DNA of 64,000 nucleotides, taken from assembly GCF_022846255.1 (NCBI RefSeq), contig NZ_AP025682.1. The stretch is one strand, 5' to 3'. A model generated the notes under the pieces. It made no database searches. It was given only the letters and a program-made list of their open reading frames with translations, and was not told the origin of the DNA. Shown here piece by piece: positions 1,710 to 17,431 of this stretch. Source of the DNA: Escherichia coli. Lineage in GTDB: Bacteria > Pseudomonadota > Gammaproteobacteria > Enterobacterales > Enterobacteriaceae. How positions within the stretch are numbered: position 1 is the stretch's first letter; every line of letters begins with the position of its first letter. Both the position numbers and the translations under genes were made by a program.

Positions 1710-2609
1710 TTAACGCAATAATGGACAATCTGGTGGTAATCGACAACGCAACGCCGCCGGAAGTATTTCAATATGGAAGTTTTGCCCACTCAACGGTTCG
1801 CCATCAAGATTAAAAGTGATTTCGTGTGGGGCTTGTATATCAAACCACGACGAAGCGCCTTCGATAATATTCGGGTTATCTTCGTCAGATTTTAATGTTG
1901 ATACGAGAGCCGGAAGAATTTCATCGCCGGTAAAAATGCGCAGTTGCAGCAAGCCATCGTTAATTAACGCGTTCGGGCACAATTGCTGACCGCCACCGGC
2001 CTGACGCCCGTTACCAATACCAATGACCAGGGCGTCACCTTGCCAGTGAAAGTTTTCACCGCGGATTTCACAACGGTCCGGTTGCAGAGTATCCATGCGC
2101 ATTAAGCCATGAATGATGTAAGAGACGCCACCCAGCGCGGCTTTTAATTTTTCCGGCGTTTCTGTGGTAATACGCGTCCCAAATCCGCCTGTCGCCATAT
2201 TAATAAAACAGGTTTGTTTGTTGACCTGCGCCATATCTATCGCAATGGCGTTACCGGCAATTGCCAGTTTCAGCGCCTTATCCAGTGCCTCAGGAATCCC
2301 TACACTGGTGGCAAAATCATTGGCGGTTCCTAATGGCAAAATTCCCAGCGCGGGTATGTCATCCCCCTCACACTGAATCAACGCCGTAGAAACTTCATTA
2401 ATGGTGCCATCGCCACCACCGGCAATCACCGTTGCGACGCCCAACTTCCGGGCCTCCTCTACATATCGTGCGGCATCGCCTTTCTCCCAGGTGACCCGCA
2501 CATGGATCGTCATTCCTTCCTCACGCAACAGCATAATTGCTTCGCGCAAGGGTAAATTGTCAGTACTTTTGCCATTAAGAATCAGTAAGCTGGCGGGAAA
2601 TTCTGCCAT
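1710..2609 (-). CDS. yegS: lipid kinase YegS (diacylglycerol-kinase-like catalytic domain)
   Basis: 299-aa ORF starting [15 protein letters not shown] with a GGDGT motif; matches my recollection of E. coli YegS. Confidence 0.92.
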
Positions 2610-3023
2610 GATCGTATGTGCCTTTATGATTGGTCTGTAGATAGTGTAGAGCAGAAAAGAAAAGGTAGAGTCAGAACAGGATGAAAGTCGGAGGATAAAA
2701 AGTCAGTTCAAGTATGGAAGATTCAGTGGTTACCACCAGGAGCTTGCAATGGGGACAGCGAATACTAACGGCAGCCACCGATAAATTTCAAAAAAGAGCA
2801 TATACCTAATATTCAACTAAACAGTGGCATCTTCAATATACTATTAAAAATATATTAACCCCCCCATGGGGTTACCCGGAAGGGCATCCGTGTATGTAAT
2901 TCCTACTTATGTAGGAAATGTTGTACAGAACATTTATTATAATCCTATTCAAATATAATAATCATGCCATTATTATATTTAAACACCAGAGCGTGTCGTT
3001 GGTATTTAATGGGGGAAGGTAAG

Positions 3024-3341
3024 ATGAAAAAGATAGCTGCTATATCATTAATTAGTGTTTTTCTTATGTCTGGTTGTGCTGTGCATAATGATGAGACAAG
3101 TATCGGTAAATTTGGCCTTGCATATAAAAGTAATATTCAGCGTAAACTCGATAACCAATACTACACCGAAGCCGAAGCTTCTTTAGCCAGGGGCAGAATT
3201 TCTGGTGCAGAAAATATAGTAAAAAATGATGCAGCTCATTTCTGTGTTACTCAGGGAAAAAAAATGCAGATAGTTGACCTGAAGACAGAAGGTGCAGGAT
3301 TACATGGCGTCGCTCGTCTGACATTCAAATGTGGAGAGTGA
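3024..3341 (+). CDS. yegR: small lipoprotein YegR
   Basis: Start ATG at 3024 preceded by a ggaagg RBS; signal peptide with lipobox (FLMSGC); 105 aa, consistent with YegR. The supplied ORF (2964) has a 20-aa N-terminal extension that I reject. Confidence 0.8.
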   Translation: MKKIAAISLISVFLMSGCAVHNDETSIGKFGLAYKSNIQRKLDNQYYTEAEASLARGRISGAENIVKNDAAHFCVTQGKKMQIVDLKTEGAGLHGVARLTFKCGE

Positions 3342-3498
3342 GAATATTTTTTGGTAAGCGTCAAACATGCGCGTTCTGGCTGTGCGTAACCGGAACCTGT
3401 GCGAGCACGATGCCAATAAGTGAAAGGCATCGTGCTATGAGGGGAGATTCTATCGATGTGGTCAATGGAAGACGGTTACCAGGATACGGCTTATGCAT

Positions 3499-3585
3499 AA
3501 AAAATAAGCCCGTGTAAGGGAGATTACACAGGCTAAGGAGGTGGTTCCTGGTACAGCTAGCATTTTATGGGTTATGTTTTTCAGC
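3499..3585 (-). ncRNA. cyaR: CyaR (RyeE) Hfq-dependent sRNA
   Basis: The reverse complement of 3499-3585 matches the 87-nt CyaR sequence as I recall it (GCTGAAAAACATAACCCATAAAATGCTAGCTGTACCAGGAACCACCTCCTTAGCC...CGGGCTTATTTTTT), including its intrinsic terminator, and lies immediately 3' of yegQ as expected. Confidence 0.85.
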
Positions 3586-3619
3586 GAAACGGATGATAAC
3601 CTTAATAAATGCAGCTGTA

Positions 3620-3635
3620 TGTGATCGGTTTCTAA
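3620..3635 (-). promoter_or_regulatory. putative class II CRP site of the cyaR promoter (TGTGA-N6-TCTAA on plus strand)
   Basis: A TGTGA half-site plus a degenerate partner, centred about 42 bp upstream of the CyaR 5' end; CyaR is known to be CRP-activated. Confidence 0.5.
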
Positions 3636-3669
3636 GAATTTTCCATCCGGGAAAAATAATCGAAATTAA

Positions 3670-5133: not shown

Positions 5134-5430
5134 TTAGCTCCAGTGTAAATGTCTGGAGGCGTCCTGGTTTTGGTTAAGGATACGAATGACGATAATTTCC
5201 TCTGGTGATTGCAGGAAATAAATTACGTGGCGTTCAAAAGGAAGAACAAAAATACCTTCGCCTAATTCAGGTCTGGGTGTACCTATATTATTGTTACTCA
5301 GAATCTGGAGAACGTCTGAAAGATGTTCCACATATCTGTCGGCTTGTGGTTCGCCGAAATGGTGATAGCTGTAATACCAGATGCCTTCTAAATCCTCATT
5401 GGCTTTTGGCATGAGTTTTATAGTACGCAC
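5134..5430 (-). CDS. RelE/ParE-superfamily type II toxin (ParE-like)
   Basis: About 92-98 aa; ParE-like segments (EDLEGIWYY..FGEPQADRYVEHL...HVIYFLQSPEEIIVIRIL); directly downstream of, and nearly abutting, an RHH antitoxin ORF. Start is either GTG at 5430 or ATG at 5412. Confidence 0.75.
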   Translation of the reverse strand: MRTIKLMPKANEDLEGIWYYSYHHFGEPQADRYVEHLSDVLQILSNNNIGTPRPELGEGIFVLPFERHVIYFLQSPEEIIVIRILNQNQDASRHLHWS

Positions 5431-5431
5431 A

Positions 5432-5683
5432 TTATTTCCTTATCCCTGCTTTCACCTTCCGTAAAAACGCGTCCTTTTCCCACGGCTGAGCTTCACCACT
5501 ACTCAACCCTTCAGCGAGCATGTCACGTAACGCTTGCAGGCGAGACTCTGCTTGCTTTTCTCGAAGTAAGCGCAGCGACTCACGGATCACTTCGCTTTGG
5601 GTGCGATAGTCGCCGGATTCAATTAAGGACTCGATAAATTCACGCAACTCATCGCCGAGATCAACCGTCATCGTTCTGGCCAT
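5432..5683 (-). CDS. ParD-like (RHH/COG3609) type II antitoxin
   Basis: 83-aa product from ATG at 5683 (MARTMTVDLGDELREFIESLIESGDYRTQSEVIRESLRLLREKQ...); ribbon-helix-helix ParD signature; stop 1 nt before the toxin start. The supplied ORF extends to 5728. Confidence 0.75.
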   Translation of the reverse strand: MARTMTVDLGDELREFIESLIESGDYRTQSEVIRESLRLLREKQAESRLQALRDMLAEGLSSGEAQPWEKDAFLRKVKAGIRK

Positions 5684-5890
5684 TTTACGCCCGCCTGTAA
5701 GTAAAAATCTTACATCAGTGTATTTCATAAACCGGATAGCGTCACGAAAGTATTAGAAGATATTTTGGCATATGAACATGTTCAGGAAGATAAGTATGGG
5801 ATGGTAAACAAAGAAAGCACAACGAGTGCTTGTCAGTGCCCACTATTTTAATGGCGGAGGTTAATCTTAATTATCAATAACTAAGAGTTG

Positions 5891-16184: not shown

Positions 16185-17431
16185 CAGGAGCGCGCTCCTT
16201 TTTTCGCGTATTCGCGGCTGGTGGCTTTATCTTCCGGGGTAGTGGCGCTCTGGGCTTCCACGACTTCCACTTTCGCCCCTTCGGTCAGGCGATCAATGCC
16301 GTCCGTCACTACGCGGTCGCCCGCAGAAATACCTGCACGGATCACCACTTTCTGACTGTCCTGAATGCCCGGTGTCACCAGATGTTTGCTGACTTTGTTT
16401 TCGCTATTCAGTACCCAGACAAAATGGCCTTCGTTGCCCATTTGCAGTGCGGCGGTGGGGATCACCACGGCGTTTTGTTCGGTATCGACTAACATGCGAG
16501 CGTTAACAAACTGATTAGGGAAAAGCGCATCATCCTGATTATTAAAGCGAGCTTTCACTTTAATCGTACCGGTAGTGGCATCGATTTGGTTATCGAGACT
16601 TAACAGCGTGCCTTCACTTAACTTCTTCGAGTTGGTGCGATCCCAGGCTTCTACCACCAGCGGTTTTCCGGCTTTTTGCGCCTGTACAACGGTGGCGATA
16701 TCGCTTTCCGGCAGAGTAAAGACCAGATCGATAGGATGCGTCTGGGTGATCACCACAATCCCGGTGGTGTCGCCACTGGAGATTTGGTTACCAACATCAA
16801 CCTGCTTGAGACCAACGCGACCATCAACTGGTGCGGTGATACGGCTCCAGTCGAGTTGCAGCTGTGCGCTGGCGACGCTTGCTTCATCAGCCTTAATGGT
16901 ACCTTCGGTTTCACTGACCAGCGCTTGTTGGGCATCCAGTTCCTGACGAGATACGAGATTGGTTTTTGCCAGTTGTTGATAACGCGCCAGGTCACGGCGG
17001 GCGTTGGCGAGCGTGGCTTTATCTTTTGCCAGTTGGCCCTGGGCTTGTGCTAATGCAACTTTGAACTGGCTTGGGTCAATTTCTGCCAGTAAATCGCCTG
17101 CTTTGACCTGCTGGCCTTCCTGGAAATGTAACGCCATCAGTTGACCGTCCACGCGGCTGCGCACCGTAACAGTATTAGCGGCGGTAATGGTGCCAAGCCC
17201 GGTGAGGTAACGCGGAACAGCCTGTTCTACTGCGGTCGCCGCCTGAACCGGAGCTAATGGGCCGGCACGCATACCACGGCGACCACCCGCTGGCGATTGC
17301 TGCGCTTGTTTCGTCGCCCCAGGGGCTGCACTCTGGGAGTCATTGCGGCCTTGCCAGAACCAGAATGCGGCGATGGCGGCGATAACCACCACGATTACGA
17401 TTACCCAACGGGATTTATAACTGCCTTTCAT
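16184..17431 (-). CDS. mdtA: RND efflux membrane fusion (periplasmic adaptor) protein MdtA
   Basis: 415 aa from ATG at 17431 ([16 protein letters not shown]...). The supplied ORF start at 17578 adds 49 residues upstream that I reject. Confidence 0.9.

Follow-up and report, generated by a model that had tools for sequence, protein, structure and literature searches.

The perfect inverted repeat TTCCTAC-TTAT-GTAGGAA at 2900-2917 of the window (the whole stretch of 64,000 nucleotides of Escherichia coli DNA that was analysed) is very probably the EvgA box of the yegR promoter, a reading derived from the sequence and joined by published K-12 induction data and a review statement. The 18-bp repeat, a putative activator site, consists of the arms TTCCTAC (2900-2906) and GTAGGAA (2911-2917), which are perfect reverse complements of each other, and of a 4-nt centre, TTAT (2907-2910), which is not symmetric. 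The box acts as an activator site for yegR rather than as a repressor operator. Both the site and its regulator have been described before, as has the way yegR responds, yegR being a member of the EvgA acid-resistance regulon.

The palindrome lies in the 414-bp spacer between the divergent genes yegS and yegR (2610-3023), as read from the sequence and from the list of open reading frames. The lipid kinase gene yegS occupies 1710..2609 on the - strand, and its start codon (CAT on the + strand) ends at 2609. The regulated gene, yegR, occupies 3024..3341 on the + strand, encodes 105 aa, and has its ATG at 3024-3026. Both names were taken from the RefSeq annotation of a record with 100% identity, with yegR described as 'protein YegR' or 'lipoprotein YegR'. 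The signal peptide of YegR ends in LMSGC and is lipoprotein-like in translation, and a Pfam search of YegR matched no family. Three alleles, those of Nissle, DLL7555 and USMARC-51408, have GTG in place of ATG as the yegR start codon.

The G+C content was 37.6% in the spacer and 35-39% across 2551-3300, compared with 49-56% in the flanking genes. The sequence-only reading had described a 414-bp AT-rich divergent yegS/yegR interval with a perfect 7-4-7 palindrome, and both the boundaries of the interval and the exact position of the palindrome agreed with the sequence. The 521 bases around the palindrome were 100% identical to strain 2014C-3075 (NZ_CP027447.1), and similar sequence, annotated yegS and yegR, was present in 5,423 of 5,426 complete E. 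coli genomes. An Rfam search of the spacer found no RNA family.

Generic 7-4-7 palindromy was not above chance, whereas the particular arm sequence was far from it. Perfect 7-4-7 palindromes numbered 8 in the window versus 4.9 +/- 2.5 expected from first-order Markov random windows, and about 27% of random spacers of the same composition held a perfect palindrome with 7-nt arms and a loop of 0-10 nt. The pattern TTCYTAC-N4-GTARGAA with <=1 mismatch was expected 0.01 times per window and was found once, at 2900-2917, with 0 mismatches. Occurrence at chance frequency, which had been named earlier as telling against the palindrome, thus applied to palindromes of this form in general and not to the specific arm sequence.

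The EvgA consensus given by Masuda and Church in 2003 is reportedly TTCPyTACA. The palindrome arms resemble this inverted repeat, and the likeness served as the lead for a motif scan. With the 14 arm positions of the window palindrome itself as the query and <=3 mismatches allowed, 34 kb of K-12 around evgAS and ydeO-ydeP (the emrKY-evgAS-yfdEVUWX and ydeO-safA-ydeP regions) gave exactly five matches, which lay in the upstream intergenic regions of emrK/evgA, frc, yfdX, safA and ydeP. By arithmetic from the coordinates, the chance of five random matches falling one per region was about 1e-8. The arm consensus TTCYTAC...GTARGAA was derived from these five K-12 target promoters, and the yegR box matched it at 14/14 positions. 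Over 161 kb, made up of the window, the K-12 loci, 49 kb from strain 2014C-3075 and three loci from outside Escherichia, TTCYTAC-N4-GTARGAA with <=2 mismatches matched at those five promoters and at yegR only. The comparison with known operator motifs that had been proposed from the sequence therefore gave a positive answer, with the arms matching the EvgA inverted repeat of the other direct targets. The K-12 yegR box was identical to that of the window.

Like the yegR box, the other K-12 EvgA boxes (ydeP, safA-ydeO, yfdX, frc (yfdWUVE) and emrKY/evgAS) are 18-bp inverted repeats with TTCYTAC/GTARGAA arms. All of them, yegR included, precede the start codon of an EvgS/EvgA-induced gene by 106-251 bp, the distance from the box end to the ATG being 106 bp at yegR versus 111-251 bp at the other targets. 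The arms of the yegR box are perfect over 7 + 7 positions, and those of the other five boxes carry 0-2 mismatches. The boxes differ at the centre, which is T-TA-T at yegR (A-AA-C in lineage L006), whereas in the other five position 8 is A or G and position 11 is T (TACA-NN-TGTA).

When a symmetrised weight matrix was trained on the five other sites alone, the yegR box scored 13.97, the highest value in the window. On random 64-kb sequences the same five-site matrix gave maxima of 11.3 +/- 2.9 (largest 18.1), and 13.97 was within this range because the T-TA-T centre of the yegR box departs from the A-NN-T of the other sites. Five sites are too few to train the centre without over-fitting, so that the matrix is not decisive, and weight was placed on the arm-only pattern instead. 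The matrix scan gave no second EvgA-box-like site at yegR. Upstream of yfdX in K-12, a second and weaker EvgA-box-like site (ATCTTACAGTTGTAGTTA, score 15.8) was observed 38 bp from the main box, at 16501-16518 of the K-12 region scanned.

The full spacer was aligned across 11 alleles: those of the window, K-12, EDL933, Nissle, six further E. coli strains picked across the identity range, and the divergent lineage L006, with a spacer identity of only 76-79% whichever complete E. coli genome is compared. The arms were invariant at 14/14 positions in 11/11 alleles, and at the centre of the box the E. coli alleles had TTAT and L006 had AAAC. Invariant columns made up 30% of 2801-2896, upstream of the box, and 58% of the 103 bases downstream of it. 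The proportion was 85% in 2610-2700 versus 30-33% in 2701-2896. The block at 2610-2700, the most conserved of the spacer, adjoins the yegS start and probably holds the leader (presumably the 5' UTR) and the core promoter of yegS, on the - strand.

A homologue scan of genome contigs returned 6 loci. Three non-Escherichia yegR homologues, with 82-84% protein identity, sit in a different gene context, and the box was absent upstream of these three. With the homologues in another upstream context, footprinting of the spacer was not extendable beyond Escherichia. Phylogenetic footprinting, which the sequence-only reading had envisaged across Enterobacteriaceae, thus succeeded among the 11 alleles, L006 included, and not across the wider family; the palindrome was kept in the orthologous spacers, where its loss had been named as telling against it.

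Among the individual alleles, that of M160133 was about 78 bases longer in the variable central part of the spacer, and a 9-bp deletion at window positions 2840-2848 was present in K-12, CV261 and EDL933. A 'Citrobacter sp.' MAG contig had yegR and a spacer 100% identical to E. coli, and a 385-bp 'Xanthobacter autotrophicus' contig (coverage 1.03) had yegR at 95% identity; these probably reflect mis-binning and contamination.

It is extremely improbable that the palindrome is a functionless chance product of AT-rich DNA. The near-chance rate of generic 7-4-7 palindromes (8 versus 4.9 +/- 2.5), the presence of several other AT-rich palindromes in the spacer, and a weight-matrix score that by itself was not beyond the random maxima would all fit such an origin. 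The arms, however, were invariant in the 11 alleles despite variable flanks, and in the 161 kb scanned the arm sequence, expected 0.01 times per window, recurred at EvgA-target promoters only. The downstream gene, yegR, is in addition strongly EvgS/EvgA-dependent (PMC4283999).

The sequence-only reading knew of no described regulator site in the spacer, which did not agree with the literature: yegR is a published direct target of EvgA (PMC8147483; PMC4283999), and EvgA is reported in a review statement to bind the yegR promoter (PMC8147483). The direct EvgA targets named with yegR are emrK/evgA, frc, yfdX, safA and ydeP (PMC8147483; PMC3720670; PMC4283999). The inverted repeats upstream of yfdX and yfdWUVE are bound by EvgA (PMC3720670), and all directly regulated genes have an EvgA binding site (PMC4283999). 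The earlier expectation of a dimeric-regulator site was correct, with the palindrome as the EvgA inverted repeat, but the word operator, in the sense of a repressor site, did not suit an activator site for yegR.

With the evgS-constitutive S600I allele in a K-12 array, yegR ranked third among the induced genes (log2 7.75); its neighbours on either side in the ranking were hdeA and hdeB, and yfdX, ydeP and emrK came lower (PMC4283999 Table S4). In glutathione-induced acid stress yegR was increased 11.9-fold together with ydeO, yfdX and emrK (PMC5811628), and it is co-expressed with yfdE (PMC8265036). The divergent yegS was absent from the S600I >4-fold list (PMC4283999 Table S4), and because of this absence the box was not assigned to yegS. 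These expression data are from K-12 and not from the window strain, the box and the 60 bp downstream of it being nearly identical between the two. The evgAS locus lies outside the window. Of the 5,426 complete E. coli genomes, 5,398 carried evgA, and in NZ_CP027447.1, whose spacer is 100% identical to that of the window, evgA and evgS were intact and the emrK box was present. The box serves yegR, and nothing points to control of yegS.

NarL/LuxR-family proteins recognise related inverted repeats. This speaks for reading the palindrome as the operator of a different dimeric regulator, either another one of LuxR/NarL type or a repressor common to yegS and yegR, in which case its resemblance to EvgA sites would be incidental or would reflect shared use. 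A single box between divergent genes also has a precedent in emrK/evgA. Such a regulator is very unlikely, as the arm pattern was specific to EvgA-target promoters in all sequence scanned, yegR behaves as an EvgS/EvgA-dependent gene and yegS does not (PMC4283999), and EvgA is the protein named as binder in the literature (PMC8147483).

Genomic SELEX with K-12 W3110 placed an H-NS site, bound in vitro, in the AT-rich spacer (2610..3023), in the row 'yegRZ < HNS > yegS' (PMC3946193). Binding of the RpoD holoenzyme in the yegRZ/yegS spacer of K-12 was obtained by the same approach (PMC3946193). The earlier proposal that the A/T tracts could be the target of a nucleoid protein was supported by the H-NS site.

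A candidate -10 hexamer of yegR, TATAAT, is located at 2938..2943 on the + strand, 20 bp downstream of the box, and would place the box centre near -41.5 and make the box overlap a poor -35. This hexamer was perfect in 10/11 alleles and was TGTAAT in L006. An alternative -10, also TATAAT, at 2954..2959 on the + strand and 36 bp downstream of the box, would place the box centre near -57.5; it was perfect in 9/11 alleles, the exceptions being L006 (TATAAC) and M160133, which has lost it. A consensus promoter scan instead paired TTCAAA (2948-2953) with TATTAT (2971-2976). When the six EvgA promoters were anchored on the box, consensus matching gave no common spacing between the box and the -10.

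An RNA hairpin (terminator, attenuator or processing site) in a transcript crossing the spacer on either strand, for example one starting at the upstream promoter that has been predicted in K-12, or an extended yegS leader, is scarcely credible as the function of the palindrome. A 38-nt segment did fold at -11.6 kcal/mol on the + strand and at -9.7 kcal/mol on the - strand (z-scores -3.9 and -4.2), and consensus promoters which would read through the palindrome exist (promoter scan; PMC3946193). The folding says little, however, as any palindrome folds. The 7-bp stem has only 3 G-C pairs, is followed by ATGTTGTA and has no T run, and 2900-2917 was not listed by a terminator scan of both strands. 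Lineage L006 kept the arms base for base, without compensatory changes, and the five unrelated promoters share the sequence and not merely the structure. The upstream promoter predicted in K-12 is furthermore broken by a 9-bp indel in the window strain.

In the mechanism proposed for the palindrome as an EvgA box, the hybrid sensor kinase EvgS phosphorylates the NarL/FixJ-type EvgA at mildly acidic pH, a step which is established (reviews including PMC8147483 and PMC8174306). An EvgA dimer would then bind the 18-bp inverted repeat with one helix-turn-helix per TTCCTAC arm, as its symmetry suggests. Bound EvgA would activate a sigma-70 promoter of yegR located 20-40 bp downstream, whose putative -10 is good and whose -35 is poor. 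Without phosphorylated EvgA, H-NS would occupy the AT-rich spacer and yegR would be essentially silent. EvgA probably both recruits RNA polymerase and overcomes H-NS, the latter as putative counter-silencing.

The yegR promoter resembles the H-NS-silenced, activator-dependent promoters of the gad/hde acid island in having an AT-rich spacer with an H-NS site and in belonging to the same acid-response circuit, and yegR would, like the genes of the island, be silent without its specific activator. Unlike at gad/hde-type promoters, counter-silencing by EvgA at yegR is something that we infer.

The closest homologue of EvgAS is BvgAS of Bordetella. The BvgA heptads of Bordetella virulence promoters are TTTCCTA-type inverted repeats, with a half-site, TTCCTA, similar to that of the EvgA box, and BvgA and EvgA are alike NarL/FixJ-family response regulators fed by an unorthodox hybrid kinase. 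The systems differ in organism and regulon, and BvgA acts on arrays of sites with cooperative spreading, whereas a single box was seen at yegR. The homology between BvgAS and EvgAS has been noted (PMC8174306).

Two other palindromes with N6 centres are found near the EvgA box. The first, AAATGTT-GTACAG-AACATTT at 2916-2935, overlaps the box by 2 nt, and the second, ATAATAAT-CATGCC-ATTATTAT at 2955-2976, is downstream of it; both were broken in several alleles. An invariant direct repeat, TGTAGA-TAG-TGTAGA, at 2636-2650, precedes the yegS start codon by 27-41 nt, inside the most conserved spacer block, and may be part of the yegS promoter or leader, or an unrecognised binding site. Two further readings are unlikely: that any of these three elements (2916-2935, 2955-2976 and 2636-2650) binds another regulator, so far undescribed, through which a further signal would reach yegR or yegS, and, separately, that the box lies at -41.5 as a class II, LuxR-like activator site, an architecture unlike that of other EvgA promoters.

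A terminator-like hairpin with a T run was found by the terminator scan on the - strand at 2874..2856. It depends on a poly-C tract (2859-2865) of strain-variable length, which was C7 in the window, C10 in FDAARGOS_1268, C5 in K-12 and interrupted in others, and the hairpin was present in some alleles only. The idea that this hairpin terminates a divergent small RNA was rejected: its stem was disrupted in K-12 and in most other alleles, it was absent in L006, and its fold was not better than that of shuffled sequences (z = -0.65).

Other features were observed near the spacer, several of them differences from K-12. The gene gatR (849-1628, + strand), which encodes the DeoR-family repressor of the galactitol operon, is intact in the window and split by IS3E in K-12. 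Between gatR and the 3' end of yegS, at 1641-1676 on the + strand, Rfam gave a match to naRNA4 below threshold (36.1 bits, gathering score 59.5), in all likelihood a REP-type repeat. Between yegR and yegQ/trhP the window lacks the P2 prophage remnant of K-12 (ogrK and yegZ; 'cryptic prophage PR-X'), and the interval at 3342-3669 holds only the CyaR sRNA (3587..3502, - strand; Rfam 100.7 bits), with a terminator at 3534..3507. A parDE-type toxin-antitoxin pair (ParD antitoxin 5728..5432 and ParE toxin 5430..5134, both on the - strand) lies between yegQ/trhP and yegP, a position at which K-12 has a 146-bp gap only.

As a discovery the site counts for little, since papers and E. coli regulatory databases already describe it, together with its regulator and how yegR responds. 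The site is of use as a calibration point, in that a genuine transcription-factor site was picked out from the raw sequence alone. The functional mark of the box is the recurrence of its motif at co-regulated promoters and its conservation against variable flanks, and not its palindromy, which is at chance level. Although without a Pfam family, YegR is among the most strongly EvgA-induced proteins.
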